This document shows positions 25,662 to 63,464 of a stretch of 64,000 nucleotides of DNA, piece after piece. Location: NCBI GenBank assembly GCA_017447805.1, contig JAFSMR010000001.1:36371-100370 (forward strand), read 5' to 3'. Every line of letters begins with the position of its first letter. Positions within the stretch are counted from its first letter, which is position 1. Under the pieces are notes generated by a model that was given only the letters and a program-made list of their open reading frames with translations, made no database searches and was not told where the DNA came from. This DNA is from Kiritimatiellia bacterium. Its GTDB lineage: Bacteria > Verrucomicrobiota > Kiritimatiellia > RFP12 > UBA1067. Position numbers and translations under genes: made by a program.

Positions 25662-26726
25662 CTAGACTAGTTCGACTAAAATAGAATCGCAAACTTCGAC
25701 TCCGCGATTCGTGAGCCGATAAAAAGGCGCGGCGCCTTCGAGAAGCCCGACTTCGACGAAGGCGTCGAGTTTTTCTTTCCACTGCGGAAAATTTGTTATA
25801 TCCAGCCCTTCGCGCGTGCGAAGAGCGAATATCGCGCGCTCTTTCATATCTTCCTCGGCGCTTAAAATCTCTACCTGCACGCCATCGCTCGTTCTCGCGA
25901 GCCCAACTCTACCCTTTGCGCCTGTTCCCAGCCCTATGTAATCTTCGCCGCGCCAAACGGACATATTATAGCGGCATTCGCGCCCTTTTTTCGCCCAATT
26001 CGATATTTCATAGCGCCCAAGCCCCATCTCGCCCAATAATTTCGATATCTCGCCAATTTCATCTAAGACTTCATCATCGCCCGGCAAAACGAGCTTTCCT
26101 TCAGCGACTGATTTCGAAAGGATTGTCTTTTCCTCTAAAATCAGCGAATATACCGAACAATGCTCTAGTCCCCAGCCGGAAAGCGTTTCCAGCGACTTCG
26201 CCCTATCCTTTAGCCCTGGATAGCCAATTATCAAATCGATTCCTGCATTTTCGAAATATTTCTTTACTAGCTGAAAGGCTCTTGCGGCGTCAAGCGCAGT
26301 ATAACCTCGGCCCATTGCCGCAAGCGTTGCATCATCAAGCGATTGCACACCCATCGATATTCTGTTTACCCCGCCATCCACTAGACGCTTTAGCAATTCT
26401 TCGTCGACATCTAGTGGATGTAATTCTACAGAAAACTCGGCTCCCGGCGCGAGTCTATCCTTGAGAACGGCAAAAAGCGGCTGCAAATCACATAGACACG
26501 GCGTGCCGCCGCCAAAATATATCGTCTTGAAAATGCCGCTATTTTCTTCTTTCTCCAATTCCTTGATGAGCCTCGTGACATATTGCACTCTCTTTTCTTC
26601 GCTTTGGCCAGCACGCGAATATAGCGCGCAATATGTGCACTTCCTTCGGCAAAAAGGGAAATGTATATAAAGATTCTTCAGCGGAAATACTTCTTTAGCT
26701 CTTTTACCTTGTCGGTTTTCTCCCAC
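25662..26726 (-). CDS. hemW: radical SAM family heme chaperone HemW
   Basis: LYIHFPFCRRKCTYCA, HemN-like without the C-terminal catalytic extension. The annotated start overlaps metK by 49 bp, so the true start is probably an internal codon. Confidence 0.75.
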   Translation of the reverse strand: MGENRQGKRAKEVFPLKNLYIHFPFCRRKCTYCALYSRAGQSEEKRVQYVTRLIKELEKEENSGIFKTIYFGGGTPCLCDLQPLFAVLKDRLAPGAEFSVELHPLDVDEELLKRLVDGGVNRISMGVQSLDDATLAAMGRGYTALDAARAFQLVKKYFENAGIDLIIGYPGLKDRAKSLETLSGWGLEHCSVYSLILEEKTILSKSVAEGKLVLPGDDEVLDEIGEISKLLGEMGLGRYEISNWAKKGRECRYNMSVWRGEDYIGLGTGAKGRVGLARTSDGVQVEILSAEEDMKERAIFALRTREGLDITNFPQWKEKLDAFVEVGLLEGAAPFYRLTNRGVEVCDSILVELV

Positions 26727-27871
26727 GGGAAATTTTCACGCCCGAAGTGTCCATAGGCCGCAGTTTCTTCATAACTCCAGCCCTTTGGCTTTTCGAGCGC
26801 GAGGTCTTTCGTGAGCGCATAGGGGCGAAAATCGAATATTTCACCCGACGAGAGCATTTTTTCCAGTTCTTCGTTGCTCACGCCATTCGCCGTAGAAAAC
26901 GTCTTTACGCAGAAACTCACGGGTTTATCTATTCCAATAGCGTAAGCTACCTGGATTTGGCAACGCTCCGCGAGACCCGCCGCAACGATATTCTTCGCGG
27001 CATATCTCGCATAATATGCCGCAGAGCGGTCTACTTTCGAGGGGTCCTTGCCGGAAAAAGCTCCGCCGCCATGCGACGCCATGCCGCCGTAGGTATCGAC
27101 GATAATTTTGCGTCCTGTCAAACCGGAATCGCCGCAAGGTCCGCCGATTACAAATTTGCCTGTCGGGTTGACGAGGAATTTCGTCTTTTTGGTAATCAAC
27201 CCCGTTGGAGCCAAAAATTCCTTCGCGGTCTCTGCAAGGAGCTTGTAATTGGCCTTTTTCGCGCCCTTGGCGGTAGTCTGATGCGATAACACGACCGTAT
27301 CGATGGCGATAGGTTTGCCGTTTTCATACACTGCCGAAATCTGGCTTTTCGCATCTGGTCTAAGCCAGCCTAGCTCGCCTGAGCGACGCTTCTCGCTGAA
27401 CATCCTCAACAATGCATGCGAATAGACAATCGGCGCGGGCATAAACTGCGGCGTCTCGCGCGTCGCATAGCCAAACATCATCCCTTGGTCGCCGGCACCC
27501 TGACTTTCAGGCGCCGCGCGGTCTACTCCGCGCGATATATCTGCCGATTGCGAATGAAGCCAATTGAAATATTGAAAATTCTTTGCCGCAAAATGCTCTT
27601 CTTCGCTCGTGTAGCCAATTCTTTCCACTACCCGGCGCGCAATCTTTTCAGTATCGATTTCTTTCAATACTTCGGCCGTAATTTCACCCATATTCACTAC
27701 TACATCCGGCCCGACCATAGTTTCGCAAGCAACTCGCGCTTTAGGCTCGATTTTCAGGCACGCGTCAAGCACCGCATCGGATATCTGATCTGCCACTTTA
27801 TCGGGGTGCCCTTCCGATACTGATTCGGACGTAAATACATGGCGATGCGCCAAAACTTTATTCTCTTTCAT
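26678..27871 (-). CDS. metK: S-adenosylmethionine synthetase (host copy)
   Basis: GHPDKVADQISDAVLDA, GAGDQGMMFGYA, GGGAFSGKDPSKVDRSAAYYARY. Confidence 0.9.
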   Translation of the reverse strand: MKENKVLAHRHVFTSESVSEGHPDKVADQISDAVLDACLKIEPKARVACETMVGPDVVVNMGEITAEVLKEIDTEKIARRVVERIGYTSEEEHFAAKNFQYFNWLHSQSADISRGVDRAAPESQGAGDQGMMFGYATRETPQFMPAPIVYSHALLRMFSEKRRSGELGWLRPDAKSQISAVYENGKPIAIDTVVLSHQTTAKGAKKANYKLLAETAKEFLAPTGLITKKTKFLVNPTGKFVIGGPCGDSGLTGRKIIVDTYGGMASHGGGAFSGKDPSKVDRSAAYYARYAAKNIVAAGLAERCQIQVAYAIGIDKPVSFCVKTFSTANGVSNEELEKMLSSGEIFDFRPYALTKDLALEKPKGWSYEETAAYGHFGRENFPWEKTDKVKELKKYFR

Positions 27872-37523: not shown

Positions 37524-37531
37524 TTTAAACC

Positions 37532-37607
<76 letters not shown>

Positions 37608-37985: not shown

Positions 37986-38420
37986 CTATGCCAGTCCAAT
38001 CTCCCGCTCCTGTTCGCTCCACAGGTCGCTCTTGATGTTGAAGAGCCTCTCCGTTGAGAAATCGTCGGGCAGCGTCTTGGCTATGACCGCCCGGAGGATC
38101 TTCGGCGAGAGGTTGGCGAGGCGCAGAACCCGAACCACATAGGGTCGATCCATCTTCAGCCCCTCTGCAAGCTCCTTCACGTCTCCAAACGCTCCGGTTT
38201 CAAGGAGTCGCGTCCACTCTCTGGCACGGGCGAAGAGCCGTATGAGCGTTCCTGATTCGTCTAGGTCGATGTCATTTACCTCTCCTTGTCCCGCAACAAC
38301 GAGTCGGCGGCGTCCGCAGACCGTCTGGAACCGGATTGGAATCGATACGAGAACATTCCCGTCCTCAGTTTCCATGATATTCATGCTTGAATTCCTCCAT
38401 GAGGCGTTTGTCGCCATCAA
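37986..38420 (-). CDS. hypothetical protein with ParB-like HTH segment
   Basis: 144 aa. DVKELAEGLKMDRPYVVRVLRLANLSPKILRAVI matches the spacing of the ParB/Noc HTH (ELAExLGxSRSxVxNxLRLLxLPxxV). Overlaps the recombinase 3' end by 56 nt in another frame. Confidence 0.4.
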   Translation of the reverse strand: MMATNASWRNSSMNIMETEDGNVLVSIPIRFQTVCGRRRLVVAGQGEVNDIDLDESGTLIRLFARAREWTRLLETGAFGDVKELAEGLKMDRPYVVRVLRLANLSPKILRAVIAKTLPDDFSTERLFNIKSDLWSEQEREIGLA

Positions 38421-39657
38421 TCTTGAACTTGATGTCGACGGATGATTCGTAGATTGTCACAGACTCGATAATCCTCGCCAGAAGATCGCGCTTGGCGACC
38501 GGTTCGAGGGATGTCCAGAACGTTTCCGGCGATTCGAGCTGCCGCCGCATCTCGAACGGCGAAATGCATCTTTCGGTCGCAAGCGCACGGAGCATCGTCG
38601 GCGTCTTCAGGAACTTGATCGCCTCCGCCTCCACAAGCGGTTCGATCAGCTGGGCGGGAACGGATTTCACCGTGCAGGTCGAGACGCCGCGCCTCATGTC
38701 CTTACGGCAGGAATAATAGCCGTAGCGGGTTCCGTTGCGGCTCTTGCCAGTCCAGGTGTATGAGAGCGCGTTGCCGCAGTGGCCGCAGCGGACGAGCCCC
38801 GTCAGGAGCGCCGGAGAGGAGATGCACCGCTCCGCCCTTGGCTTGACCTCGACGGCCTTAAGCCGCTCTGCTACCTTGTTCCACAGCTCCATGCTGACGA
38901 TAGGTTCGTGGACGCCCTTGAAGGATTCGCTCTTCAGCGGGACGCGTCCGATATACACGCAGTTGCGAAGCGCGGTTGCGACCATGACGGTGTCGAAAGG
39001 CTTGTCCCTCTCTGGGAAGCGCAGGATACCGTTTTCTGTTAGTCGCTTTGCGACGAGCTTTGGCGTTCCGAGTTCAAGATACCACTCGAATATCTTGATG
39101 ACATTGGGAGCTGTTTCGGGGTCGACCACCAGCCGCTTGTCGATGCGTTTGTAGCCGTATGGAACCGTACCGCCCGGCCAGAACCCCTTACGCCTTGTCG
39201 CGGCCATCTTGTCGTATGTGCGCTCGGAGGCAAGTTCCCGCTCGAACTGGGCAAAGGTCATGAGGAGGTTCATGCACATCCGCCCCATCGAGGTCGAGGT
39301 GTTCAGCTCCTGCGTTACGCACGAGAACGACACGTGGTGTTTCTCCAGCTCGTTGAAGACCTGGGTGAAGTCGAGGAGCGAACGCGAAAGACGGTCGATC
39401 TTGTAGCAGACAATCATGTCGATTTTGTCCGCTCTTACATCCTCCATCAGCCGCTGAAACGCCGGTCGCTTCAGATTGCCGCCGGAGTACCCTCCGTCAT
39501 CGTAATGGGTTTCAAGACAAACCCAACCCTCAAGGCGCTTCGCCGCGATGTACGACTCGCAGGCCATGCGCTGCGCGTCGAGGGTGTTGAACTCCTGTTC
39601 GAGGCCTTCTTCAACGCTCTTTCTCGTGTAGATTGCGCATCGAATCACTTGTTGCAT
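38365..39657 (-). CDS. large serine recombinase (resolvase-domain integrase)
   Basis: 430 aa. N-terminal catalytic domain with the nucleophile serine in AIYTRKS, followed by DRLSRS. Recombinase domain and C-terminal zinc ribbon (CGHCGNALSY...YYSCRK). Confidence 0.9.
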   Translation of the reverse strand: MQQVIRCAIYTRKSVEEGLEQEFNTLDAQRMACESYIAAKRLEGWVCLETHYDDGGYSGGNLKRPAFQRLMEDVRADKIDMIVCYKIDRLSRSLLDFTQVFNELEKHHVSFSCVTQELNTSTSMGRMCMNLLMTFAQFERELASERTYDKMAATRRKGFWPGGTVPYGYKRIDKRLVVDPETAPNVIKIFEWYLELGTPKLVAKRLTENGILRFPERDKPFDTVMVATALRNCVYIGRVPLKSESFKGVHEPIVSMELWNKVAERLKAVEVKPRAERCISSPALLTGLVRCGHCGNALSYTWTGKSRNGTRYGYYSCRKDMRRGVSTCTVKSVPAQLIEPLVEAEAIKFLKTPTMLRALATERCISPFEMRRQLESPETFWTSLEPVAKRDLLARIIESVTIYESSVDIKFKIDGDKRLMEEFKHEYHGN

Positions 39658-41583: not shown

Positions 41584-41652
41584 CTGCCATCTGTGATGAT
41601 TATCTTGAAAAATGCGAAATCGCTATTGACACGGAAAATCGGTTACCATCCG

Positions 41653-42501
41653 TTACCTCTTTACGGGCTTAAGCGAAGCTGCTATCATGCGCTTCTTCTT
41701 TTTGATCTTAGTACGACGTGCGATGGTTTTCGACGATGTCCGATGTTGCCCCTCGACTTTTTGCCTAATGGTTGATATCTCGCGCCAGCCCCAATGGTTT
41801 GCAACTTCTCTAATCTTGAGGCATTCATCATACAAGGCACCTCCAGGCTTGGCATCCTTCATTATGTATTCCGCGACCGCAAAACGTCCGAACAGTTTGA
41901 GTTCTTTTCTGCGTTTCTTGAGAGCATTGCCTATCTCATGGGTAAACCGCTCGGCGGCGGAACGATCCTCAAAAATATCCTTTTCATCAAACAGATAGGA
42001 TGGGCGTCCGCATTTGTCTATGATTTCTCCCTTGGCATCGGCTATCGCCGCAATAATTCTGTCTTCAGGTGATGAGTGTGCGCCTGGGCAGGTGGCGTTG
42101 CTGTTACGACAATTGACTTCAGAGAGAGAAGGTACGCACTTTGTCGCCTCGTCCAAGTATTGACCTGAAATGGTCGTGTCGTTCAGCAAGAGCATGAAAC
42201 TGCGGTAGTTGAAGTCCAGCAGTTCTACGTCCTCCGGCTGGATTTCCCTGTCCTCCCACGGTTCGCAATGTCGGCAGAAGAAAGTGTACGACGGATTGTC
42301 TGCACTGCCATTTCTTGTGACGGATGCTCGCTCTCCGCATTCAGGGCAGCATATCTCGGACTTGAATTTGCCGTTGAACTTCAGCACGCCTCTTTCCACG
42401 AGCAGCAAGTCGTCTTTCTCAAGGAGATTGGCCGGGACTTGGAAGGCGCGGCAATTGCGCTCTTCCAGCTGGCATTTTATCAGTAGCAGGACACCGGTCA
42501 T
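41653..42501 (-). CDS. hypothetical protein with N-terminal C4 zinc ribbon and Lys/Arg-rich C-terminal tail (cargo gene 3)
   Basis: 282 aa. CCPECGERASVTRNGSADNPSYTFFCRHCEP. C-terminal KTIARRTKIKKKKRMIAASLKPVKR. No recognisable catalytic motif. GC about 51%. Confidence 0.5.
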   Translation of the reverse strand: MTGVLLLIKCQLEERNCRAFQVPANLLEKDDLLLVERGVLKFNGKFKSEICCPECGERASVTRNGSADNPSYTFFCRHCEPWEDREIQPEDVELLDFNYRSFMLLLNDTTISGQYLDEATKCVPSLSEVNCRNSNATCPGAHSSPEDRIIAAIADAKGEIIDKCGRPSYLFDEKDIFEDRSAAERFTHEIGNALKKRRKELKLFGRFAVAEYIMKDAKPGGALYDECLKIREVANHWGWREISTIRQKVEGQHRTSSKTIARRTKIKKKKRMIAASLKPVKR

Positions 42502-43784: not shown

Positions 43785-43814
43785 GCCCGCCTCCTGATTT
43801 TCATTGTTGCTTCA

Positions 43815-52010: not shown

Positions 52011-52287
52011 TGGAGCGAAAAAGCCGACCGCTCGGGCAACCGAAAGAGGCCGATGACGAGGCCCCGAAAACCGCCCGAACGGTCGACGGCGGACATTGTG
52101 CCATAACCCGCACGACAAGTCAACCGCCCGAATCGGGAAATAACGGCTCGGGTCGGGCGGGGTGGGACGTAACGTCCCTGCGAGGCTACGGTTCCTCCCT
52201 GCCCCCTCTCAAAGGCAGGGCGCGGGAAGGAGCGCAACTCCAGGACAGACTTTCTTTCCCGACGACGTAATTTTCAAGGAGGTAAAA

Positions 52288-54516
52288 ATGCAAGGAAAAC
52301 AAGATGAAATGACCTATGCAACCGTGTGTTCGGGAATCGAGTGCATGAGCGCAGCGGTAGCGCCGCTCGGCGGCTGGAAGCCGGTGTTCTTCAGTGAGAT
52401 CGAGCCGTTCCCGTGTTCGCTACTGAAGCACCGGTACCCGACGGTTCCAAACCTTGGGGACATGACGAAAATCACAGCCGAGAAGATCGGCGAAGAGAAA
52501 TGGAGGATCACAAATGGAACAGATGTCATTGAACTTGCCGGGCGTCTCGGCTGTCTCGCCGGCGGCACGCCGTGCCAGGACGTGTCGGTCGCGGGGAAGC
52601 GCGCGGGCATGGCCGAAGGGAGCGGAACCCGCTCCAGCCTTGCCTTCCACTTTGCAAGGCTTTGTCGAGAGCTACAACCCAGATGGGTGCTTTGGGAGAA
52701 CGTTCCGGGAGTTCTCACCTCAAACGGAGGACGCGACTTCGCGCACTTCGTCAAGTCGATTGGGGAATGCGGGTATTCTCTTGCCTACAGGACTTTGGAC
52801 GCTCAATGGGTGCGAGTGGACGGGCTGCCCCGCGCAGTTCCACAGAGACGCCGGCGTGTGTGGCTTGTCGGACATCTTGGAGACAGTTGGCGAACACCTG
52901 CGGAAGTACTGTTTGAGCCTCAAGGCGTGCGCGGGGATACTCCGCCGTGCCGCATCGCGGGGCAAGGATTTACCAGCGAGACTGGCGGCGGCGCTGAAGG
53001 CGCAGATCGCCCGGTTCCAACGAACTCAAACGGCGGCGACGTGATGCCCGCCCTCACCGCGCGGGACTTGGAGGCGCGGATGACCGGGCAGGCTGATCGC
53101 TCGGGCGGATACGTCATGCAGCCGTCGGGCTTCGACCCCTACGAGCCTGGCGGCGTCAAGTCGGACAGTCCAGAAGTCTCGGGCGCTCTCGTCAATGGCT
53201 CTTCGCCGGGTTTCCACAACGCGGTGTGCTTTGAGAACCACCAGACGGATGCAAGGACGACGGAGGTTGATGTCGCCCCGACTATGGGTGCAACGCACAA
53301 CGCGCAGGCGGCGAACAACAACCCGCTTGTCGTTGTGCCGACCGACGTGTTCGGCAAGGTCGCGCACGCCATGAACAAGAACGGCGACGGCGAGAAATAC
53401 GCGAAGATCGAGGTCGCCGAGACGAGAAACACATTCTCGAATTCGGAGGCGCGGACACAGGAAGTTGTCGTGCAGCCCAAGGACGGCGTAGTAGCCATCG
53501 ACATGGACAAGAACAAGCCGACGAACGCCGACAAGCCTGTCCGCAAGGGCGGCGCTGGATTTGGCGTCTCGGAGAAAGGCGCGTCCTACACGCTCACGGC
53601 GAGAGACCAGCACGCGGTCGCATACGCCATCGACTCTATGGGGTCCAACGCGATGAAGTCGAAGAACCCGAAGAGCGGATGTCGGGAGGTTGAGTGTGCG
53701 CCGACTCTGACGACGGTCGATTCCGCGCCGGTCAAGCACCAGGGCGGCACAGCGGTCGTGGCGTTCCTTCCGGGCAACTCCAAGAAGGCTCGTTCCATCG
53801 CCGCCGACGAGGAGGTTTCGCCTACGCTCATGCGGACGCAGGGCGAGAGCGGCAACAAGGTCGCTGTAGCGACGGAGTGCGTCGGCGTGTTCGACATGGA
53901 GGCAGGGAAGTCGAGCGGTCGGGCGGACACGTCCGGCGTTTCGCCCACGATCCTCGCGTTGCACGGCACAGACCCGCACGCGGTGTGCATCGGCTTCAAC
54001 GCGGAACCGGGAACGCACGTCCAGACCCCGCACGACAACCTTGGCGACACCCTCGCTGTGAGCCACAAGTGCGGCGTCGCAATCGGCCTCGACCGCGCCT
54101 CGTTCAACCAGGGGAAGAACGCGAAGTTCGGCTTCTCGGTCGAAGAGGAATGTGCGCCCACGGTCGTGTCCAAGGGACCTGGCGCGGTCTCGTTCGAGCC
54201 GGGGATCGCCAAGCGCGAGGGAGCGTCGCACCGCTTCTCGGACGAGGTGACGTCGACGCTGCGCTCCGACATGGGCGACAACCTCCCGGCGGTCGCCGTG
54301 GACTACATCGTCCGCCGCCTGACCCCGCTCGAGTGCGAAAGGCTCCAGGGGCTGCCGGACGGATACACGCTGATTCCGCATCGCGGGAAGCCTGCGGAGG
54401 AGTGTCCCGACACGCCAAGGTACAAGGCGCTGGGCAACGGCTGGGCGGTCAACTGCGCCCGCTGGATATGCCAGCGAATCCAGAAACACGAACAGGAGAA
54501 CACACATGGAAACTAA
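52288..54516 (+). CDS. DNA (cytosine-5)-methyltransferase with an exceptionally long (about 470 aa) reiterated variable region; candidate multispecific MTase
   Basis: Motif I CSGIE, motif IV GGTPCQDVSVAG, motif VI ENVPG, motif VIII QRRRRVWLVG, C-terminal motifs IX/X (RRLTPLECERLQGLPDGYT, GNGWAVN). Start at the ATG after AAGGAGG. Confidence 0.85.
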   Translation: MQGKQDEMTYATVCSGIECMSAAVAPLGGWKPVFFSEIEPFPCSLLKHRYPTVPNLGDMTKITAEKIGEEKWRITNGTDVIELAGRLGCLAGGTPCQDVSVAGKRAGMAEGSGTRSSLAFHFARLCRELQPRWVLWENVPGVLTSNGGRDFAHFVKSIGECGYSLAYRTLDAQWVRVDGLPRAVPQRRRRVWLVGHLGDSWRTPAEVLFEPQGVRGDTPPCRIAGQGFTSETGGGAEGADRPVPTNSNGGDVMPALTARDLEARMTGQADRSGGYVMQPSGFDPYEPGGVKSDSPEVSGALVNGSSPGFHNAVCFENHQTDARTTEVDVAPTMGATHNAQAANNNPLVVVPTDVFGKVAHAMNKNGDGEKYAKIEVAETRNTFSNSEARTQEVVVQPKDGVVAIDMDKNKPTNADKPVRKGGAGFGVSEKGASYTLTARDQHAVAYAIDSMGSNAMKSKNPKSGCREVECAPTLTTVDSAPVKHQGGTAVVAFLPGNSKKARSIAADEEVSPTLMRTQGESGNKVAVATECVGVFDMEAGKSSGRADTSGVSPTILALHGTDPHAVCIGFNAEPGTHVQTPHDNLGDTLAVSHKCGVAIGLDRASFNQGKNAKFGFSVEEECAPTVVSKGPGAVSFEPGIAKREGASHRFSDEVTSTLRSDMGDNLPAVAVDYIVRRLTPLECERLQGLPDGYTLIPHRGKPAEECPDTPRYKALGNGWAVNCARWICQRIQKHEQENTHGN

Positions 54517-55765
54517 CAGGATGAAGGTCGTGAACGTCCCCGTCTCGGAGATCATTCCCTACGAGAACAACCCGCGTATCAACGAGGGCGCGGTCGAGCA
54601 GCTGGCGAACATAATCGCCACCCTCGGCTTCAGGAATCCCGCCGTCCTCAACAAGGACAAGGTCATCATCGAGGGTCACACGCGCCTTCTCGCCGTGAAG
54701 AAGCTCGGCTGGGAGACGATGCCCTGCATCATCGCCACCGACCTGACGCCGGAGCAGGAACAGGCCTTGCGCATCGCCGACAACAAGATTGCTGAAATCG
54801 CGGAGTGGGACGAGGACAAGCTCAAGGTCGAACTCGCCGCGTTGCAGGAGGCGGGGTTCGACCTTTCGCTTCTCGCCTTTGGCGACGACGAGCTGGACGA
54901 CCTTTTGGGCGGCGAGGCGGGGACGCACGGCGAGACGGAGCCTGACGCGGTTCCCGAGACGCCGGAGATTCCCGTCTCGACCCCTGGCGAAGTCTACCAG
55001 CTCGGAAAGCACCTCCTCGTCTGCGGAGACTCGACGAAGCCCAACGACGTCGACAAGGTGTGCAAGGCGGACGAGGCGAACCTCTGGCTCACGGACCCGC
55101 CGTACAACGTGGACTACCACGGCTCGGACGGACAGTCGATCCAGAACGACTCGATGGAGGACACGAAGTTCCGCGAGTTCCTTCGCGCGGCGTTCGGCTG
55201 CGCGGAGAAGCGCCTCAAGCCGGGCGGCTCGTTCTACATCTTCCACGCGGATTCCGAGGGCTACAACTTCCGGGGAGCGTGCTTTGACGTGGGGCTTAGC
55301 GTGAGGCAATGCCTCGTCTGGAAGAAGAATTCGCTCGTCCTCGGACGGCAGGACTACAAGTGGATTCACGAACCCTGCCTCTACGGTTGGCGCGAGGGGG
55401 CGGCGCACGACTGGTACTCCGACTGTTCGCAGACGACAGTTATGGAGTTCAACAAGCCGAAGAAGAACGACCTCCACCCGACGATGAAGCCCGTCGAGAT
55501 GCTGTGCTACCTGATCGGCAATTCGTCGAAGCGCGGCGACATCGTCCTCGACACGTTCTGCGGTAGTGGCTCGACGCTCATCGCCTGCGAGAGGACGGGT
55601 CGCGTGTGTAGGGCCGTCGAACTCGACCCGAAATACTGCGACGTAATCCGCAAGAGGTGGGCGGAGTTCGTGCATGGGGAGGGATGCGATTGGCAATCGC
55701 TGACTCCCGTCGTCGGCACATCACCGGCGCCAGAAGCGGAGGATGCACACGATGAAGGTGCTTGA
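54506..55765 (+). CDS. ParB/Srx-like nuclease domain fused to N6-adenine/N4-cytosine DNA methyltransferase
   Basis: N-terminal ParB-like region (IIEGHTRLLAVKKLGW). MTase motif IV DPPY (LWLTDPPYNVDYHG). C-terminal FxGxG-type AdoMet motif DTFCGSGST. Confidence 0.8.
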   Translation: METNRMKVVNVPVSEIIPYENNPRINEGAVEQLANIIATLGFRNPAVLNKDKVIIEGHTRLLAVKKLGWETMPCIIATDLTPEQEQALRIADNKIAEIAEWDEDKLKVELAALQEAGFDLSLLAFGDDELDDLLGGEAGTHGETEPDAVPETPEIPVSTPGEVYQLGKHLLVCGDSTKPNDVDKVCKADEANLWLTDPPYNVDYHGSDGQSIQNDSMEDTKFREFLRAAFGCAEKRLKPGGSFYIFHADSEGYNFRGACFDVGLSVRQCLVWKKNSLVLGRQDYKWIHEPCLYGWREGAAHDWYSDCSQTTVMEFNKPKKNDLHPTMKPVEMLCYLIGNSSKRGDIVLDTFCGSGSTLIACERTGRVCRAVELDPKYCDVIRKRWAEFVHGEGCDWQSLTPVVGTSPAPEAEDAHDEGA

Positions 55766-56390
55766 ACTCTTCTCCGGGACGGGCGTCCTGTCGGCTGCGT
55801 TCAGGGAGCGCGGCCACAGGACGCTGACGGTTGATTGGGAGGAGTCGCACAAGCCCGACCTCAAGGCTGACATTGGAGCGCTGACTGCCGATGACATCGT
55901 TCGGCTGTTCGGCCGCCCCGACATCGTATGGGCAAGTCCCGACTGCACGACGTATTCCGTCATGTGCATCTCGCGCCACCGCGACGGCGTGAAGCCAAAG
56001 TCGGAGTACGCCGCGCAATGCGACAGGACAAACGCCCACGTGTGCGCCCTCATCTGCGAACTGAAGCCAAAGGCGTGGTTCATCGAGAACCCTGTCGGGA
56101 TGCTGCGGAAGATGCCGTTCATCCAGAAGCTGATGGAAGACACCGGTGGTCGCCGCCATACGGTGACGTACTGCCAGTACGGCGAGAGGCGGCAGAAGCC
56201 GACCGACATCTTCACGAACCACCCCGACCCGAAGTTCCGTCCGCCGTGCAGACGCGGCGACAAGTGCCACGATGCCGCGCCTCGCGGCTCCAGGACGGGG
56301 ACGCAGGGACTGAAAGGCAAGGCTCTGCGGGCGAAGCTCCCGGCGGAACTCTGTAGGCACGTCGTCCGCATCTGCGAGAGCCTCGTGTAA
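55752..56390 (+). CDS. minimal C5-MTase-like protein (about 212 aa) lacking a target-recognition domain
   Basis: Motif I ELFSGTG; motif IV-like SPDCTTYS (Cys retained, Pro to Asp); motif VI FIENPVG; motif VIII-like QYGERRQ. No TRD-length insertion. Confidence 0.6.
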   Translation: MKVLELFSGTGVLSAAFRERGHRTLTVDWEESHKPDLKADIGALTADDIVRLFGRPDIVWASPDCTTYSVMCISRHRDGVKPKSEYAAQCDRTNAHVCALICELKPKAWFIENPVGMLRKMPFIQKLMEDTGGRRHTVTYCQYGERRQKPTDIFTNHPDPKFRPPCRRGDKCHDAAPRGSRTGTQGLKGKALRAKLPAELCRHVVRICESLV

Positions 56391-56570
56391 GTGCGGAAAG
56401 TGTGCAAACTCCGCGATTGTGTCGTGTAGACGTTTTCCACTTCACGACACAACTGTGCAGGAAACACACTCCCATATGCGGCGCAATTGGGCCATATAAG
56501 CCCGATTTACGCCGTATCTTCTTGAAAATCCAAGTAATACAGCCCGACAGAGGTGTGAGAGATCTATACG

Positions 56571-56588
56571 TCGACATTGACATGTCGA
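56571..56588. promoter_or_regulatory. operator-like palindrome TCGACAT-tgac-ATGTCGA upstream of the phage metK
   Basis: Seen directly. Overlaps a TTGACA hexamer. Confidence 0.3.
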
Positions 56589-56663
56589 GGATCCACACTA
56601 TCGGGCGACACTCTACGACAAACCAGCAAACCGCCCCGCAAAATCGGGGCAGAAAGGCGAAAA

Positions 56664-57689
56664 ATGGCAAAGAAAATCCAATCTTCGGAATACTGCACGC
56701 TCGGGCATCCCGACAGGACGTGCGACTATATCGCGAGCTATATCCTGGATCGCTACATGGCGGCCGATAGGAACTCGAGAGTCGCGCTGGAGGTTCAGCT
56801 CAAGGACGAGTTCTGCACGATATCGGGCGAGGTTACGAGCAACGCACGGTTCGGAACCGACGAAATCGCGGCATTTGCGCGCGAGGCGGTCGAGAAGATC
56901 GGCTACACGCCGGAGTACCAGGCGAAGTTCGGAGCTGCGAATGTCGTGGCGGGCCAAGAACTCGTCGTGGAGACACACATATCCCACCAGTCCGGCGACA
57001 TCGCGCAGGGAGTGAACCGCGACAGCTGGGGCGACCAGGGGATATTCTGGGGACTTGCGGTGGACGAGCCGAAAATGGGCTACCTTCCGAAGGACTACTG
57101 GCTCGCCCGCAAGTTGGGGCAGGGAATCGCCGGGAAGCTGGGCGGGCTGGACGTGAAGACGCTTGTCACGCTGGAGGACGGCAAGCCCGTCGAGTGCTAT
57201 GTCGCCATCCCGCTTACGCCGGGAGACGACGACGCTCCCGTCTTCGCGGCGGCAAAGGCGATGGTCGGCGAGGATTGCCGCATCGTTGTGAACGGGACGG
57301 GGCGGTACGTGACGCACGGCTCTGTCGGCGACTGCGGAACGACGGGCAGGAAGCTCGTCGTGGACTTCTACGGCGGGAACTCCCGCATCGGCGGCGGCTC
57401 TCCCTGGGGCAAAGACCCGACGAAGGCGGACGTCACATTGAACGTCTACGCCCGCAGGTGCGCGCTTGAGGGGATGAAGCGGTACGGACTTCCCGAGATG
57501 CGCTGCGCGATATCGTGCTGCATCGGCCGCCGCGACATCCGCGTCTCGCTGTTCGACAGGGAGATGAACCTCGTCGAGGAGCGGATCGAGTCCGATCCCG
57601 CGAGCCACGTCATCGAGCTTCTCGGACTCGACAAGCCCGTCTATGCCGACACGTGCGCTCGCGGCCTCTTCGGATACGAGACGCTTTAG
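56664..57689 (+). CDS. metK: phage-encoded S-adenosylmethionine synthetase homologue (divergent, 341 aa)
   Basis: GHPDRTCDYIASYILD, GDQGIFWGLA, GGGSPWGKDPTKADVT align with the host MetK motifs at 26678-27871 but are strongly diverged. Confidence 0.75.
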   Translation: MAKKIQSSEYCTLGHPDRTCDYIASYILDRYMAADRNSRVALEVQLKDEFCTISGEVTSNARFGTDEIAAFAREAVEKIGYTPEYQAKFGAANVVAGQELVVETHISHQSGDIAQGVNRDSWGDQGIFWGLAVDEPKMGYLPKDYWLARKLGQGIAGKLGGLDVKTLVTLEDGKPVECYVAIPLTPGDDDAPVFAAAKAMVGEDCRIVVNGTGRYVTHGSVGDCGTTGRKLVVDFYGGNSRIGGGSPWGKDPTKADVTLNVYARRCALEGMKRYGLPEMRCAISCCIGRRDIRVSLFDREMNLVEERIESDPASHVIELLGLDKPVYADTCARGLFGYETL

Positions 57690-58147
57690 CGGACGGAGGC
57701 GAAGAGCCCGCGACCGGCCTTGCGGAAGCGCGAGGCGTCGCCCTTGTCCTTGATCTCGCGGATGATCGCGGAATAGAGTGTCTGTTCCGGCGTCTTGCCG
57801 CCCTTGGGCGTCCAGAGGCCGGACTCCTTCGCCTTTTCGATCATCGCCCTGACCGCCAGCGGCTCGTCGGACTGTTCCAGTACGGCGGCTGCGGCGTTCA
57901 GGAGCGAGAGTCCTTTCTCGGGCGAGGTCGCCGCAGGCTTCACCGCCTTTGGCTTCGCGGCCTTGGGCGCGGCAGTCGCGGCAGCGGTCTCGCCGTCCCG
58001 CGATTTGAGCGACTTGACTGTGAGCGTCTTGCCGCTCCTCGTCTCGACCGTCCAGCCGTTCTCGGCCTTCGCATTGACGCGAACCTCGACGAGGTTGCGT
58101 CCGACCTTGGTGAATGCGCGGTCGCCCGCCTTGTATTCCTTGCTCAT
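57686..58147 (-). CDS. HARE-HTH (HB1/ASXL/RpoE-delta-type winged helix) domain protein
   Basis: C-terminal SLLNAAAAVLEQSDEPLAVRAMIEKAKESGLWTPKGGKTPEQTLYSAIIREIKDKGDASRFRKAGRGLFA. Lys/Ala-rich linker. Confidence 0.6.
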   Translation of the reverse strand: MSKEYKAGDRAFTKVGRNLVEVRVNAKAENGWTVETRSGKTLTVKSLKSRDGETAAATAAPKAAKPKAVKPAATSPEKGLSLLNAAAAVLEQSDEPLAVRAMIEKAKESGLWTPKGGKTPEQTLYSAIIREIKDKGDASRFRKAGRGLFASVR

Positions 58148-58287
58148 TGCATCGTTCCTTTCTCATTCTTTTGCGTCCGAGTTCCCCATGAACCCGGAAC
58201 GGCGCACATATTCGCTCTTATTCCGAGACAAGTCAACGGGGTATCGGAAAGTATTTCAACAAACTTCAAAAAAAAAGGAGGCCAGCC

Positions 58288-58488
58288 ATGCCAGAACAGA
58301 GCCGCGACCACATTACGAGGGAGAACTTCGTGACTGCCATGCGGAGGTCGGGGTCACGCACCCTGACGCTCGAACGGCTCGAAGCCGACATCGCCGCCGG
58401 CGCTCCCGTCAACGCGGACGGGACGATCAACATCCTGAAGTACGTCGCGTGGATTGCAAAGGAGCTTGGAGATGACGGTCAACGTTAA
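58288..58488 (+). CDS. small hypothetical protein (66 aa) preceding the terminase; possible small-terminase-like accessory
   Basis: AAAGGAGG RBS. Position immediately 5' of TerL. Confidence 0.3.
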   Translation: MPEQSRDHITRENFVTAMRRSGSRTLTLERLEADIAAGAPVNADGTINILKYVAWIAKELGDDGQR

Positions 58489-60760
58489 GAAGATGAAGCC
58501 CGTGGAGATGGTGCGCTTCCTGAACTCCACGGAGCTTGGGACGGTTCTCTCCGCCGCGATGGTGTACAGGCACTTCTCCGAGGCGGGCTACCGCATCGCC
58601 TCGACGGAGGATTCGCGTTGTCTGAGCTTCTACCGCTACGCGGCGTGGCTCATCGACAAGCGCAACACGCCGCCACCGGCCATCGAGACCGATCCAGGGG
58701 CGTACACGGCCCATCGCGAGGCTGCGGCGCAGCGGCAGGCAGACCTCTCCCTTGCGGGACGCGACATCGGCGAACTTCCCGAAGTCGCCGATCCGGAAAG
58801 GAAGGAGGCGTGCCGTTTCGACTTCCGCAAGTTCTGCGAGACATACTTTCCCGAAGTGTACAACCTCGAATGGTCGGACGACCACCTGCGGGCAATCGAG
58901 AAGCTTCAGAAGGCAGTCCTCGAAGGCGGGCTCTTCGCACTTGCGATGGCGCGCGGAAGCGGCAAGTCGAGCCTGACGGAAACAGCCGCTATTTGGGCTA
59001 TGGCCTACGGACACCGCGAGTTCATCGTCATAATCGGCGCAAGCGAGGGTGCGGCGCTCGAAATGCTCGACTCCATCAAGACGGAGCTTGAGGTCAACGA
59101 GCATCTCCAGGAGGACTTCCCGGAGATGGTGTATCCTATCGCAAGACTTGAGGGAATCGCCAACCGCTGCGCGGGGCAGCTCTACAAGGGCGAGCGGACG
59201 CGCATTGCGTGGACTGCGAGCGAGATCGTCCTTCCTACAATCGCTGGCGCGGCATCGTCTGGCGCAATCGTCCGCGTCGCCGGCATCACGGGCCGCATTC
59301 GCGGCATGAAGTACAAGCGCCCCGACGGGCGGACTATCCGCCCGGAGTTCGTCATTGTCGATGACCCGCAGACGAGCGAATCCGCCGGCTCCGCCGAGCA
59401 GACGAGAAAGCGCGTCCGCGTCCTCGCGGGCGACGTCCTCGGCTTGGCCGGCCCCGGTCGCAAGATCGCGGGCGTCATGCCCTGCACGGTTATCCGCCCA
59501 GGCGACATGGCCGAGCAGATGCTCGACCGCTCGAAGCATCCCGAATGGAACGGAGAGCGTTGCCGGATGCTCTACAAGTTCCCGAAGAACGAGGAGTTGT
59601 GGAACCGCTACGCAGACCTCCGCGCAGACGAACTGCGGGAGAAAGGCACGTTCGCAAAGGCCACGGCGTTCTACGCCGCGTACAGGAAGGAGATGGACGA
59701 GGGCGCTGTCGTGGCGTGGCCCGCCCGCTATAACCACGACGAAATCTCCGCCGTGCAGCACGCGATGGACCTGAAGCTCACCGACGAGGCCGCGTTCTGG
59801 GCGGAGTACCAGAACGAGCCGTTGGCGGAGGACTTGGGGACGGAGGAGCAGTTGACGCTGGACGGTGTGTCCTCTCGCGTAAACGGACACTCCCGTCTCG
59901 GCGTTCCCGTCCAGGCGACGCACGTGACGGCCTTCATCGACGTCCAGAAGACGATGCTGTTCTACTGCATCGTCGCGTGGGACGATGACTTCACGGGACG
60001 CGTCATCGACTACGGCGAGTGGCCCGACCAGAAGCGTCGGTTCTTCACGCTGAACGACGCGAACGTCACGCTCCAGCAGAAGTTCCCTCGAAGCGGACTC
60101 GAAGGATGCCTGTACGAGGGGCTGAAAAGCCTTACGGGGGAAATCCTCGGACGCGAGTATTTCCGCGATGACGGCGCTGCTATGCGGATCGAGAAGTGCC
60201 TCATCGACGCGAACTGGGGACAATCGACGGACACCGTGTACCAGTTTTGCCGCGAGTCGGAGTACGCAAGCGTCCTCACGCCTTCGCACGGCAAGTACAT
60301 CGGCGCAAGTTCCAAGCCGATGGGCGAGTACAAGAAGGCAATCGGCGACAGAGTCGGTCTCAACTGGCGGATGCCGAACGTCAGGGGCAAACGGGCGATA
60401 CGGCACGTCGTCTATGACACGAACTTCTGGAAGTCGTTTGTGGCGACGAGGCTTCTCACCTCGACTGGCGACCGAGGGGCTTTGACGCTCTTCGGGAGAA
60501 GCCCGGCTGACCATCTGCTCTTCGCGGAACATCTCACCGCCGAGTACCGGGTCAAGACCGAGGGGCGCGGACGCCGCGTGGACGAGTGGAAGATGCGCCC
60601 CGACGCCAAGGACAACCACTGGTGGGACTGCGTCGTCGGAAGCGCGGTCGCGGCTTCGATGTGCGGATGCGTCCTCGCGGGGACTATGACGGACGGAAAA
60701 CCGAAAGCTGCGAAACCCAAGGTGAAACTTTCGGAACTTCGGCGATTGAAAAATTTTTAA
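58472..60760 (+). CDS. phage terminase large subunit (lambda gpA-like)
   Basis: Walker A MARGSGKSS. Size and position upstream of gpW and portal. C-terminal nuclease region with acidic residues. Confidence 0.8.
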   Translation: MTVNVKKMKPVEMVRFLNSTELGTVLSAAMVYRHFSEAGYRIASTEDSRCLSFYRYAAWLIDKRNTPPPAIETDPGAYTAHREAAAQRQADLSLAGRDIGELPEVADPERKEACRFDFRKFCETYFPEVYNLEWSDDHLRAIEKLQKAVLEGGLFALAMARGSGKSSLTETAAIWAMAYGHREFIVIIGASEGAALEMLDSIKTELEVNEHLQEDFPEMVYPIARLEGIANRCAGQLYKGERTRIAWTASEIVLPTIAGAASSGAIVRVAGITGRIRGMKYKRPDGRTIRPEFVIVDDPQTSESAGSAEQTRKRVRVLAGDVLGLAGPGRKIAGVMPCTVIRPGDMAEQMLDRSKHPEWNGERCRMLYKFPKNEELWNRYADLRADELREKGTFAKATAFYAAYRKEMDEGAVVAWPARYNHDEISAVQHAMDLKLTDEAAFWAEYQNEPLAEDLGTEEQLTLDGVSSRVNGHSRLGVPVQATHVTAFIDVQKTMLFYCIVAWDDDFTGRVIDYGEWPDQKRRFFTLNDANVTLQQKFPRSGLEGCLYEGLKSLTGEILGREYFRDDGAAMRIEKCLIDANWGQSTDTVYQFCRESEYASVLTPSHGKYIGASSKPMGEYKKAIGDRVGLNWRMPNVRGKRAIRHVVYDTNFWKSFVATRLLTSTGDRGALTLFGRSPADHLLFAEHLTAEYRVKTEGRGRRVDEWKMRPDAKDNHWWDCVVGSAVAASMCGCVLAGTMTDGKPKAAKPKVKLSELRRLKNF

Positions 60761-60821: not shown

Positions 60822-61913
60822 ATGCGATACGGAAGCGTGTGCAGCGGAATCGAGGCTGCGAGTGTCGCATGGCGGCCCCTCGGCTGGCGTTGCGCGTTCG
60901 TCTCCGAAGTAGAGCCGTTCGCGTCGGAAGTGCTGAAACACCGTCTGCCGAGGGTGCCTAACCTCGGAGATTTTACGAAAATTGAGAAAGGAGGATATGA
61001 TGGAGACATCGACCTCCTTGTCGGCGGGACGCCCTGCCAATCCTTCTCAACGGGAGGAAAACGTGGCGGAATCGCCGACCCTCGCGGCAACCTCGCCATC
61101 GAGTTTGTCCGACTGGCTGAAAGGACGGATGCGAGGTGGGTGGTCTGGGAGAACGTTCCAGCCGTGCTTGCCATCAATGGGGGACGAGACTTCGCCGCGT
61201 TTCTCTCCGAACTCGTCGGATGGGACGTCAAAGTCCCGGACGACGGGTGGGGAAACTCTGGCGTCGTCACCAACGCCCCCGGACGCTTCGGCGTTTCGTG
61301 GCGAGTGCTGGACGCTCGATATACCCGAGTTTCCGCATTTCCAAGGGCGGTGCCGCAGCGAAGGCGTCGTGTCATCCTTGTCGGATGCCGTGATCGCTGG
61401 CAGAGCGCCGCAGAGGTACTGCTTGGCGGCGAACTATGCGGAGGCGATGCTTGCCCGAGCCGCGAGGCTGGGGTACGCGCTGCCGCCGACGCTGGAGAAT
61501 GTGCTTCGGGAGAGTGCTTCCCGATAGATATGATGAACATCGAGGGACGCACCAAGTGCCTCAAGACGAAGTGCTACGACGAGGCGGGAACGGCGATGTA
61601 TACGCTCCGCTCCAGCCACGTGAATGCGGTCTGCACACCATGCCAGCTGCGGCGGCTTCTGCCGGTCGAATCGGAGCGGCTCATGGGCTTTTCTGACGGC
61701 TGGACGGACATTCCGTGGAAAGGCAAGGCGCACGCACCCGACGGATTCCGCCACAGGGTGTGCGGGAACTCGATGTGCGTAAACGTCATGCGCTGGATCG
61801 GCGAGAGGATATCCGCCGTCGCAGCGGGAAAGGAATTTGAAGACTATGGACGAGAAGTCTCTCGAAGAGGCGATGGAGCGGCTGCTCACTTCGCCCAAGG
61901 AGGTGGAGGTTGA
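60822..61913 (+). CDS. DNA (cytosine-5)-methyltransferase (fourth MTase, monospecific-size)
   Basis: CSGIE, GGTPCQSFSTGGKRGG, ENVPAV, QRRRRVILVG, GNSMCVNVMRW. The 3' end overlaps the gpW-like ORF, so the true stop is uncertain. Confidence 0.8.
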   Translation: MRYGSVCSGIEAASVAWRPLGWRCAFVSEVEPFASEVLKHRLPRVPNLGDFTKIEKGGYDGDIDLLVGGTPCQSFSTGGKRGGIADPRGNLAIEFVRLAERTDARWVVWENVPAVLAINGGRDFAAFLSELVGWDVKVPDDGWGNSGVVTNAPGRFGVSWRVLDARYTRVSAFPRAVPQRRRRVILVGCRDRWQSAAEVLLGGELCGGDACPSREAGVRAAADAGECASGECFPIDMMNIEGRTKCLKTKCYDEAGTAMYTLRSSHVNAVCTPCQLRRLLPVESERLMGFSDGWTDIPWKGKAHAPDGFRHRVCGNSMCVNVMRWIGERISAVAAGKEFEDYGREVSRRGDGAAAHFAQGGGG

Positions 61914-62049
61914 CGGACAGCGGGTGACGAACCAGTCGGTCGGCGACCTCATCAAGGTTGCCAACTACCTCGCCTCCAAGAACGCCCTCAAAGGCAAAAG
62001 GCTGCCGATTCGCATCACGAAGATGGCGGCGGGAGGAGGCGCAATATGA
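61837..62049 (+). CDS. gpW-like head-tail joining protein
   Basis: 70 aa. Lambda gene order A-W-B. LEEAMERLLTSPKEVEVDGQRVTNQSVGDLIKVANYL parallels the lambda gpW core. Confidence 0.6.
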   Translation: MKTMDEKSLEEAMERLLTSPKEVEVDGQRVTNQSVGDLIKVANYLASKNALKGKRLPIRITKMAAGGGAI

Positions 62050-63464
62050 GACTGTGGCCATCGAAGAAGAAGGACGGGAAAGCGAGGTCATCGCTCCTTG
62101 CGAGGTTTCTCCGCGCAAGGTTCGACGCCGCGCAGACGACGAAAGACAACGCGAAGCACTGGGGCGCGGCGGAGTTCCTTTCAGCGGACGCGGAGGCGGA
62201 CTCGAACGTCCGCAAGATTCTCCGCACCCGCGCCCGCTACGAAGTGCAGAACAACTCCTACGCTCGCGGCATCGTGAAGACGCTTGCCGAGGACACGATA
62301 GGGACAGGGCCAAGACTCCAGATGCTCCTCGAAGACGAGGAGACGAACAGGAAGATAGAGCACGACTTCCAGGTGTGGGCGAAGAAGACGCACCTCCCCG
62401 CCAAGCTGCGCACTATACGCATGGCGCGCTGCCAGGACGGAGAGGCGTTTATTCTGCTTGCGCGGAATCCTCTGCTCAAAACGAACGTGACGCTCGACAT
62501 GCAGCTCATCGAAGCCGACCGGGTTACGGATGATGAACTTACAGTCGATCCGAACTGCATAGACGGCGTCACGTTCGACCAATTTGGCAACCCCAAGTCC
62601 TACAAGGTGCTGAAGAAGCATCCGGGCGGGACGGACTCGTTCGACACGGAGTTCGTGGCAATCAAGGCCGAGAACATGATCCACGTGTTCCGGCAGGATC
62701 GCCCCGAACAGCATCGCGGCATCCCGGAGATTACCGCTGCGCTTCCCTTGTTTGCACACCTCCGCCGGTTCACGCTGGCGGTGGTGAGCGCGGCGGAGGC
62801 CGCCGCCGACTTCGCGGGCATCCTGTACACGGACTCGCCGGCGAACGGCGAGGCCGACAGCGTTGAGGCGATGGACACGATCCAGCTTGAGCGGAACATG
62901 CTCCTCACGATGCCAGGCGGCTGGAAGATGAGCCAGGTCGATCCGAAGCAGCCCGTCACGACATACGGCGAGTTCAAGCACGAGATACTGAACGAAATTG
63001 CAAGGTGTCTTTCGATGCCCTACAACATCGCTGCGGGGAACTCGTCGGGCTACAACTACGCTTCGGGACGGCTCGACCACCAGACGTACTACAAGTCGCT
63101 CAAGGTGGACCGGGCGTTCATGGAGGCGGAGATACTCGACCGCGTGTTCGATGCGTGGATGCGCGAGTGGTCGCTTGCGACCGCTACGCAGCTTGACGCC
63201 TGCGACTGCCGCCACGTGTGGTTCTGGGACGGACAGGAACACGTCGATCCCGCGAAGGAGGCGAACGCACAGGAGAAGCGGCTTCTCAACAAGACCACTA
63301 CTTTGGCGGCGGAATACGCCCGCCAAGGCAAGGACTGGGAGACTGAGCTTCGGCAGATAGCCAAGGAAAGGACGCTCATGAAGGAACTCGGCATAGACGA
63401 TGTTCCGAAGAAGAACGAATCTCAAGACGAAAACGAAGGAGAAGAAGATGGGAAAGACGAGTGA
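62046..63464 (+). CDS. phage portal protein, lambda family
   Basis: 472 aa. Lambda-type portal N-terminus. Position after gpW. Acidic C-terminal tail (ESQDENEGEEDGKDE). Confidence 0.8.
   Translation: MRLWPSKKKDGKARSSLLARFLRARFDAAQTTKDNAKHWGAAEFLSADAEADSNVRKILRTRARYEVQNNSYARGIVKTLAEDTIGTGPRLQMLLEDEETNRKIEHDFQVWAKKTHLPAKLRTIRMARCQDGEAFILLARNPLLKTNVTLDMQLIEADRVTDDELTVDPNCIDGVTFDQFGNPKSYKVLKKHPGGTDSFDTEFVAIKAENMIHVFRQDRPEQHRGIPEITAALPLFAHLRRFTLAVVSAAEAAADFAGILYTDSPANGEADSVEAMDTIQLERNMLLTMPGGWKMSQVDPKQPVTTYGEFKHEILNEIARCLSMPYNIAAGNSSGYNYASGRLDHQTYYKSLKVDRAFMEAEILDRVFDAWMREWSLATATQLDACDCRHVWFWDGQEHVDPAKEANAQEKRLLNKTTTLAAEYARQGKDWETELRQIAKERTLMKELGIDDVPKKNESQDENEGEEDGKDE

Follow-up and report, generated by a model that had tools for sequence, protein, structure and literature searches.

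Why should a prophage carry a gene for S-adenosylmethionine (SAM) synthetase when the host chromosome already encodes one? The question is raised by a 64,000-nucleotide stretch of the genome of a Kiritimatiellia bacterium of gut or rumen (GenBank assembly GCA_017447805.1, contig JAFSMR010000001.1, positions 36,371 to 100,370; the whole stretch is called the window here and all coordinates refer to it). A preliminary description of the window had reported two genes for SAM synthetase (methionine adenosyltransferase, MAT), and we find both, a canonical host metK at 26678..27871 on the minus strand and a compact second copy at 56664..57689 on the plus strand, within a prophage. We argue below that the second gene probably encodes a catalytically active, trimmed SAM synthetase, an auxiliary metabolic gene (AMG) of a temperate phage that supplies SAM for the methylation of phage DNA before packaging.

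The prophage encodes a compact and diverged MetK

The host protein is a canonical MetK that is 397 aa long, has all three Pfam MAT domains, scores 504.7 bits on the MetK equivalog model TIGR01034 (above the cutoff) and is 59% identical to E. coli MetK. An exact-sequence look-up finds the two metK genes in the Kiritimatiellae metagenome-assembled genome (MAG) records MBR0196570.1 and MBR0196598.1, the former being the host protein, named methionine adenosyltransferase of a Kiritimatiellae bacterium. The phage open reading frame (ORF), 56664-57689, has an ATG start and a product of 341 aa, and a longer alternative from a TTG at 56577, 29 codons 5′ of this ATG, would encode 370 aa. Since homologues of 340-343 aa start at a common MAK(K/T)IQ.SEY N-terminus, the ATG is the likely start. 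The protein matches the terminal MAT domains of Pfam (S-AdoMet_synt_N, 1.8e-20; S-AdoMet_synt_C, 2.3e-16) and aligns with PHROG 1569 from residue 5 to 338 on profile positions 2-339 of 346 (E = 2e-66, 225.8 bits), and so combines the full-length profile match and the phage or prophage setting on which membership of this family rests. PHROG 1569 itself carries the label 'unknown function'.

The two copies in the window are far apart. BLASTP of the phage against the host MetK gives 29% identity (E = 5e-33), and in a rough neighbour-joining (NJ) tree the phage protein belongs to a deep clade that stands apart from the canonical MetKs and is far from the host and E. coli enzymes; this clade is marked by a short G[LI]D[IV]K signature common to roughly 35-60 diverged clusters. 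The second copy had been described beforehand as phage-borne, shorter and heavily diverged, and as not near-identical to the host gene, and each of these statements holds, given the prophage setting, the length of 341 versus 397 aa, the 29% identity and the separate placement in the tree. The last two also rule out a recent capture of the gene from the host. With the host metK on the same contig, the phage gene is a viral homologue of an enzyme that the host also encodes, which is one mark of an AMG.

The phage gene is under purifying selection, as its dN/dS is 0.10-0.13 against relatives that are 93-94% identical and 0.19-0.33 against more distant ones. A chance ORF is ruled out by 1483 homologous clusters at 90% identity (word-indexed search), by the low dN/dS and by an AlphaFold model that matches solved MATs, and a pseudogene or decaying copy is ruled out by the dN/dS values together with the invariant motifs.

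A trimmed protein with an intact active site

If the phage protein makes SAM, then the residues that bind the substrates and metal ions in canonical MetKs will have been retained in spite of its divergence. However, if it merely binds the host enzyme, these residues would not be needed. The three signature motifs named in the preliminary description are all found, GHPD at residues 14-17, GDQG at 123-126 and GGGSPWGKDPTK at 243-254. That description had also proposed an alignment with E. coli MetK, for which we used a reference sequence verified against PDB 7ll3/1fug, aligned with the host, phage and family proteins. The full set of residues is present in the phage protein, namely His14, Asp16, Glu42, Glu55, Gln98, Ser99, Asp118, Asp163, Lys165, Arg229, Asp238, Arg244, Lys245, Lys265, Lys269 and Asp271 (E. 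coli numbering), and the sole change among the ligand residues checked is Phe230 to Tyr. Among them, His14 is the catalytic acid, and roles have likewise been described for Asp163, Arg229, Phe230, Ser99, Gln98, Asp238 and Glu55 (PMC1282579). The catalytic positions are invariant or nearly so in 115 family members that are 59-93% identical, and they are also kept in two Firmicutes-phage MetKs of only 33-34% identity; His15 and Asp17 of the phage protein are invariant in the 115 relatives and in both of these distant phage MetKs. For the remaining residues we presume the roles assigned to them in the structural literature on the E. coli enzyme. As all catalytic, substrate- and metal-binding residues of E. 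coli MetK are kept and are invariant or nearly so, the phage MetK is most likely an active, trimmed-down SAM synthetase and no decoy, and enzymatic activity is what its sequence would predict.

The predicted structure is that of a MAT. An AlphaFold (AF2) monomer model of the phage MetK, built on an alignment of 33 sequences, has a pLDDT (predicted local distance difference test) of 84.3 and a pTM (predicted template modelling score) of 0.86, with low confidence limited to residues 216-245, and the top 50 PDB matches listed by Foldseek are MATs without exception (TMq 0.72-0.83, E ~1e-23). A search of the BFVD viral structure library returned no meaningful match, which has no bearing on viral MetKs. 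In real MATs the loop equivalent to residues 216-245 is ordered at the dimer interface. The protein thus resembles canonical MetK (E. coli, PDB 1P7L/1RG9/7LL3; TIGR01034) in its three-repeat MAT fold, in its GHPD, GDQG and GGG..GKDP.K motifs and in its ligand residues, and it differs in being phage-encoded, in an identity of only ~29-34%, below that shared by diverse bacterial MetKs such as the host and E. coli enzymes, in its length (341 versus ~384-397 aa) and in at least five deletions. It lacks 5 aa after the gating loop, 6 aa before Asp163/Lys165, ~15 aa of the middle repeat, 3 + 7 aa of the third (C-terminal) repeat and ~20 aa of the C-terminus. With the loss before Lys165, the canonical RPD[AG]K becomes G[LI]D[IV]K in the phage clade.

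A protein of this kind might also act on the host enzyme. The preliminary description considered a dominant-negative or heteromeric regulator, a non-catalytic protein that would pair with the host MetK and modulate host SAM synthesis while making no SAM itself. Mixed dimers are conceivable in principle, as MAT active sites form at the dimer interface (PMC9202080), and the monomer model is poorly ordered at the interface loop, residues 216-245. However, the catalytic, Mg/K-, ATP- and methionine-binding residues are invariant or nearly so across the family, down to 33% identity, and a pure binder would not need them. A large interface complementary to that of the host enzyme would moreover be unlikely at 29% identity and with many indels, and because the phage encodes SAM consumers next door, lowering SAM would be counter-productive. 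We regard this idea as very improbable.

Some relatives carry insertions within the same motifs. In P0154 and P0162 an intein (Intein_splicing + LAGLIDADG) lies at about residue 126, in the GDQG motif, and P0151, P0152 and P0164 have a ~330-aa insert at about residue 249, between GGG..G and KD of the third motif. A Pfam scan of P0151 gave no intein match for this insert, whose position nevertheless suggests that it is an intein too. Inteins typically go into functionally constrained sites, so the positions of these inserts at GDQG and GGG..GKD point to functional constraint on both MetK motifs. To our knowledge, MetK inteins have not been described before.

MetK is linked to DNA-modification genes

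The phage metK sits inside the prophage, with the replication module on one side and the terminase and portal genes on the other. A rightward block that begins at 45.2 kb contains a DUF3799 exonuclease, AAA_24, DUF669, RusA, a helicase and a primase-polymerase, then methyltransferases and MetK, which is the last gene of this replication/modification block and lies just before the packaging genes. Upstream of metK on the same strand are a large C5 cytosine DNA methyltransferase of 784 aa that is kept in the closest relatives (52162..54516; PF00145, 1.1e-34), an N6/N4 DNA methyltransferase fused to a ParB/Noc-like N-terminus (54506..55765; PF01555, 6.4e-26), whose homologues have the ParB_N domain as well, and a short C5-methyltransferase-like ORF of 215 aa (55743..56390; PF00145, 4.5e-05, profile positions 1-116 of 324). 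The latter occurs only in the closest relatives (70-92% identity) and shares bases with the 3′ end of the methyltransferase gene before it; its product could be a methyltransferase subunit, truncated or split. Downstream of metK, and on the minus strand, is the gene of a HARE-HTH protein (57686..58147; PF05066, 1.3e-12), which is convergent with metK and overlaps its stop codon by 4 nt. It is followed on the plus strand by a 66-aa ORF without a Pfam match (58288..58488), a possible small terminase subunit (TerS) from its kept position only, by the large terminase (TerL) of the gpA type (58454..60760; PF20454, 9.9e-24), by another C5 cytosine DNA methyltransferase (60822..61913; PF00145, 4.8e-35), which co-occurs with MetK within the phage lineage, and by a lambda-family portal protein (62046..63464; PF05136, 1.4e-58).

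If MetK serves these methyltransferases, then the genes should stay together in other phages. Methyltransferases in related loci were detected by tblastn with a handful of queries and by Pfam spot checks. The order ParB_N-N6/N4 methyltransferase, MetK, HARE-HTH on the minus strand, possible TerS and TerL, C5 methyltransferase and portal is found in most of 43 genome loci (ParB-methyltransferase matches in 36 of the 43) and in the closer IMG/VR loci; the ParB_N-N6/N4 methyltransferase gene is two genes 5′ of metK here and directly 5′ of it in many related loci. The position and strand of the HARE-HTH gene between methyltransferase and terminase are kept in nearly all relatives, including those that lack MetK, and candidate roles for its product are those of a modified-DNA reader, a regulator or a packaging factor. 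Overall, 105 of the 119 loci with enough flank have a methyltransferase or Mom gene no more than 2 kb from metK, although relatedness of the loci inflates such counts. The same association is seen in phages of unrelated types: in L098 and L121 MetK is followed directly by an N6_N4 methyltransferase and a T4-type terminase, in L100 by ParB_N and a Mom-family protein, in Streptococcus phage Javan20 by adenine and cytosine methyltransferases ~1 kb downstream and then the terminase, and in an Evtepia Heliusvirales phage by an HNH gene and then a DNA methyltransferase. Of the roles put forward in the preliminary description, that of feeding the adjacent methyltransferases is the best supported, by this conserved gene order.

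The relatives of the prophage provide a natural experiment when their loci are anchored on the identity of their TerL to that of the window. All 15 relatives with a TerL at least 67% identical carry MetK, whereas all 22 with a TerL 57-63% identical are without it and keep the order of ParB-methyltransferase, HARE-HTH and terminase, which indicates that MetK is an accessory and not a core gene of this phage lineage. C5 methyltransferases are present in 10 of the 15 MetK-positive loci and in 1 of the 22 MetK-negative ones (Fisher p = 8e-5, with loci that are not phylogenetically independent), and within the lineage MetK is an inserted accessory gene that accompanies a larger (extra C5) methyltransferase load. 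As the gene travels with the DNA-modification enzymes of the phage, and does so where the methyltransferase load is high, its distribution argues for a supply for self-methylation and not for a role in host metabolism.

A host-directed role would take the form of lysogenic conversion, with MetK expressed in the lysogen and altering SAM-dependent host physiology (methylation, polyamines, quorum signals) to the benefit of the host. When a prophage metK region of Streptococcus agalactiae was deleted and complemented from a plasmid, changes in autoaggregation, chain length, glycocalyx and biofilm followed, although the complementation was partial and confounded by secondary mutations (PMC8223999). 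In the window, a promoter of its own for metK could sit in the 273-nt intergenic region 5′ of the gene (56391..56663, plus strand). Short blocks of this region are conserved across 15 relatives (GTGTGC ... GGAAACACAC). It further contains CGCCG-TAT-like motifs that recur, an inverted repeat with perfect 10-bp arms (56417-56426 / 56443-56452) and, directly before the ribosome-binding site of metK, a GC hairpin (56633-56650) whose sequence varies while its pairing is kept in the alignment of the 15 relatives. A sigma-70 promoter scan of 56000-58600 found no promoter-like site, though the sigma-70 type may not be that of the host, and an intrinsic terminator scan of the same interval found one terminator-like site, on the minus strand, which is below chance expectation. 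Relatives without the short C5-like ORF, however, have a gap of only ~12 nt 5′ of metK, which leaves no independent promoter region. Morons usually lie at prophage ends, whereas MetK is inside, and co-oriented with, the replication/modification block before the terminase. Finally, a benefit to the host would not explain the tight linkage of MetK to DNA modification across phage types, and we consider lysogenic conversion unlikely.

The proximity of MetK to a Mom-family gene in one distant member bears on a further possibility, namely that the compact enzyme makes a SAM analogue, with another nucleotide or amino acid, for an unusual DNA modification. The changes specific to the clade are close to the nucleotide site (G[LI]D[IV]K for RPD[AG]K, Phe230 to Tyr), and MATs whose active sites are identical can still differ in how promiscuous they are for nucleotides (PMC8715544). 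However, the adenosine contacts (Asp163, Arg229, the aromatic residue 230, Ser99) and the methionine contacts (Glu55, Gln98, Asp238, Lys269) are conserved, and the neighbours of MetK are ordinary SAM-dependent C5 and N6/N4 methyltransferases; an altered product is therefore highly doubtful. In the Mom-linked locus itself (L100, 8079-12318), a possible pyridoxal phosphate (PLP)-enzyme-like ORF, a 347-aa ORF, a short MetK, ParB_N and the Mom-family protein stand in a row, which may represent a different SAM-linked DNA-modification cassette.

Several points weigh against an active enzyme devoted to phage methylation. The central-domain model PF02772 has no match in the phage MetK in our Pfam scan, and the protein scores 160.3 bits on TIGR01034, short of the cutoff of 309.4, which accounts for the only name that PGAP gives to it, 'methionine adenosyltransferase domain-containing protein'. 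Both shortfalls are explained by its deletions and changes, as the PF02772 region aligns with deletions; many relatives have a precomputed PF02772 match, marked weak for P0106. Several of the deletions may nevertheless bear on activity and oligomerisation. At the level of the loci, where relatedness inflates the counts as noted, ten have no modification gene near MetK (several of these are short-flanked), five MetK-positive loci have no detectable C5 methyltransferase, and the MetK-less relatives keep the ParB-methyltransferase, which therefore needs no phage MetK. The argument also requires SAM to be a limiting factor for phage methylation in the host, which we infer. Taking these points together with the intact active site and the conserved gene order, we hold a SAM-supplying phage enzyme to be probable, though well short of certain.

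A proposed SAM supply and the demand of phage methylation

How might such an enzyme be used? We propose that a temperate phage of Kiritimatiellae and related PVC (Planctomycetes-Verrucomicrobia-Chlamydiae) bacteria carries MetK as an AMG and probably expresses it in lytic growth together with its three to four orphan DNA methyltransferases. MetK would convert ATP and L-methionine to SAM, PPi and Pi and thereby raise or sustain the SAM pool free of the host control of metK, such that all new phage genomes could be fully methylated before packaging and would be protected from restriction in the next host. The size of the demand can be gauged from the phage DNA, in which several 4-bp motifs occur at 3-8 sites per kb and CpG/GpC-type sites at 97-124 per kb. 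Under our own assumptions of burst size and pool size, ~1,000-2,000 methyl groups per ~45-kb genome would roughly amount to ~100,000-200,000 SAM per burst of 100. By this rough estimate, methylation of 4-bp motifs would consume about one whole cellular SAM pool (at 0.1-0.4 mM) per burst, and for an enzyme of the CpG or GpC type the demand would be roughly tenfold, or ~ten pools.

The same enzyme could also serve as insulation or as a counter-measure, with the diverged MetK sustaining SAM synthesis under shut-down, repression or inhibition of the host enzyme. The cause might be a T3-type SAM lyase or MetK inhibitor of a competing phage, host shut-off or a SAM-depleting defence, and the divergence of the phage copy would then be an escape. 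Besides cleaving SAM, the lyase of T3 inactivates E. coli MetK via heteropolymers (PMC8406200; bioRxiv 10.1101/2023.02.27.530186), which makes MetK a known target in phage warfare. In line with insulation, identity between the phage copy and the host enzyme is only 29%, the phage copy has a remodelled surface and many deletions, and Rfam scans found no known riboswitch before it: at gathering thresholds the whole window has only three tRNAs, with no SAM riboswitch before either metK, and a permissive scan of 56300-56800 gave no match. However, neither the window nor the related loci yielded a SAM lyase or a SAM-depleting defence, and our literature search turned up no SAM-depleting host defences. 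Insulation would still feed the phage methyltransferases and thus largely overlaps with the supply of SAM for self-methylation, and by itself it does not explain the gene order. As a separate explanation, which takes in the resistance to SAM depletion named in the preliminary description, it appears improbable to us.

Two phage systems allow a comparison with the proposed supply of SAM. Like the window prophage, T3 has a gene that acts on the host SAM pool, its SAM lyase (SAMase), which works against restriction-modification and BREX (bacteriophage exclusion). T3 destroys SAM, inactivates MetK, disarms SAM-dependent defences and stays unmethylated, whereas the window phage appears to make SAM and to methylate itself, by means of a protein whose predicted fold is unrelated. 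The Lake Baikal phage VP_139, which infects a freshwater methylotroph, encodes a MAT, an S-adenosylhomocysteine (SAH) nucleosidase and three methyltransferases, a set that has been read as a boost to the SAM cycle (PMC7678222). It has in common with the window prophage a phage MAT alongside several methyltransferases, and it differs in host, habitat and phage type and in its SAH nucleosidase, as no SAH nucleosidase or hydrolase was seen in the part of the prophage within the window, past whose end the prophage extends and a gene for SAH recycling could lie.

Phage MetKs are common

The preliminary description had called phage-borne metK genes rare, which the distribution of the family contradicts. 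An exhaustive search of 50%-identity representatives yielded 6425 that belong to the MetK family, 121 of them at E ≤ 1e-30. Among GTDB genomes, relatives of the phage MetK come mostly from gut and rumen MAGs of Kiritimatiellia, Lentisphaerae and Verrucomicrobia, and in IMG/VR 312 viral contigs have one. Matches in GenBank phages (INPHARED) number 131 records, a count that includes at least some host-flank genes, and 90 of these are Streptococcus phages annotated 'S-adenosylmethionine synthetase'. The corresponding orthologue K00789 is reported from 58.9% of Heliusvirales genomes, where it and dcm (K00558) are the commonest co-occurring AMGs, and a published virome survey counts K00789 as one of the 50 AMGs seen most often in gut viromes. 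Lists of the most abundant AMGs of gut and digester viromes repeatedly include phage SAM synthetase, its role there being called undetermined. With its match to PHROG 1569 as well, the phage metK of the window is an ordinary case of a common phage auxiliary gene.

The further statement that such genes are functionally uncharacterised largely stands. Our literature search found no enzymology for a phage MetK, and the one piece of functional work that it turned up is the genetic phenotype published for the streptococcal prophage metK (PMC8223999). Some residual interest attaches to the G[LI]D[IV]K clade, whose biochemistry is unexplored.

The MetKs of Streptococcus phages (Javan, 12/111phiA, phi1207.3) and Heliusvirales resemble that of the window in being short (~345 aa) and in being placed between the replication module and the DNA methyltransferases and terminase. 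They differ in that they are 31-34% identical to the window protein, have a canonical xPDAK motif and a longer C-terminal repeat, fall on a different branch of the rough NJ tree and belong to phages with Firmicutes and not PVC hosts; the match to PHROG 1569 is that of the window protein itself. Among the database records, the metK of Helicobacter phage Pt11061_1 (PQ159895.1, L049) was rejected as a phage gene, as it lies in a host flank (metK-ndk-plsX-fabH) within a prophage record, where it is split by frameshifts. The MetK of Evtepia phage NatCom_11697 (PV036427.1, L048) is annotated 'peptidase'.

Other features of the prophage and its relatives

GC content rises from ~51% to ~62% at roughly 45-46 kb of the window. 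This difference between the host flank and the replication/structural region of the prophage is unusually large for a temperate phage and runs in an unusual direction. The likely integrase of the prophage is a serine recombinase with Resolvase, Recombinase and Zn_ribbon_recom domains (38365..39657, minus strand), which adjoins a cluster of tRNAs (Gly/Lys/Phe, 37352-37607). From the integrase to the replication block, at 40150-45116, all ORFs are on the minus strand and the GC content is intermediate. They encode a sigma-70 region-4/ECF-like protein (40150-41226), two products without a Pfam match (41653-43784) and an AAA_14/DUF4143 ATPase (43815-45116), and could be accessory or defence cargo of the prophage.

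In a 74%-identical relative (L044/L045), candidate intein-bearing genes are found at 3978-7118 and 10084-13440. Its ParB_N-N6/N4 methyltransferase is 1046 aa long, with Hint/LAGLIDADG intein domains inside, and its large terminase of 1118 aa, compared with 768 aa in the window, suggests another intein; a free-standing Hint_2/LAGLIDADG ORF lies upstream.

Implications

The deletions of the phage MetK could be more than a by-product of divergence. Tentatively, and with far more doubt than confidence, we consider that the G[LI]D[IV]K clade may be a phage-specialised 'minimal MAT' in which the deletions change the behaviour of the enzyme. Possible changes are a dimer-only assembly, a loss of product inhibition, with the segment behind the gating loop shortened, or immunity to SAM lyases and other phage inhibitors that target MetK. 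The enzyme, the ParB_N-methyltransferase and the HARE-HTH protein might also form a modification unit of their own, encoded directly 5′ of the packaging genes, for example with local delivery of SAM. If true, this would be a counter-defence module with a distinct mechanism, and the compact enzyme would be of interest for biotechnology. A compact MAT of ~340 aa with a complete active site could in any case serve as a minimal enzyme for the production of SAM or SAM analogues. For the biology of these phages, the locus and its relatives provide a clear and testable genomic argument on the role of an abundant virome AMG.

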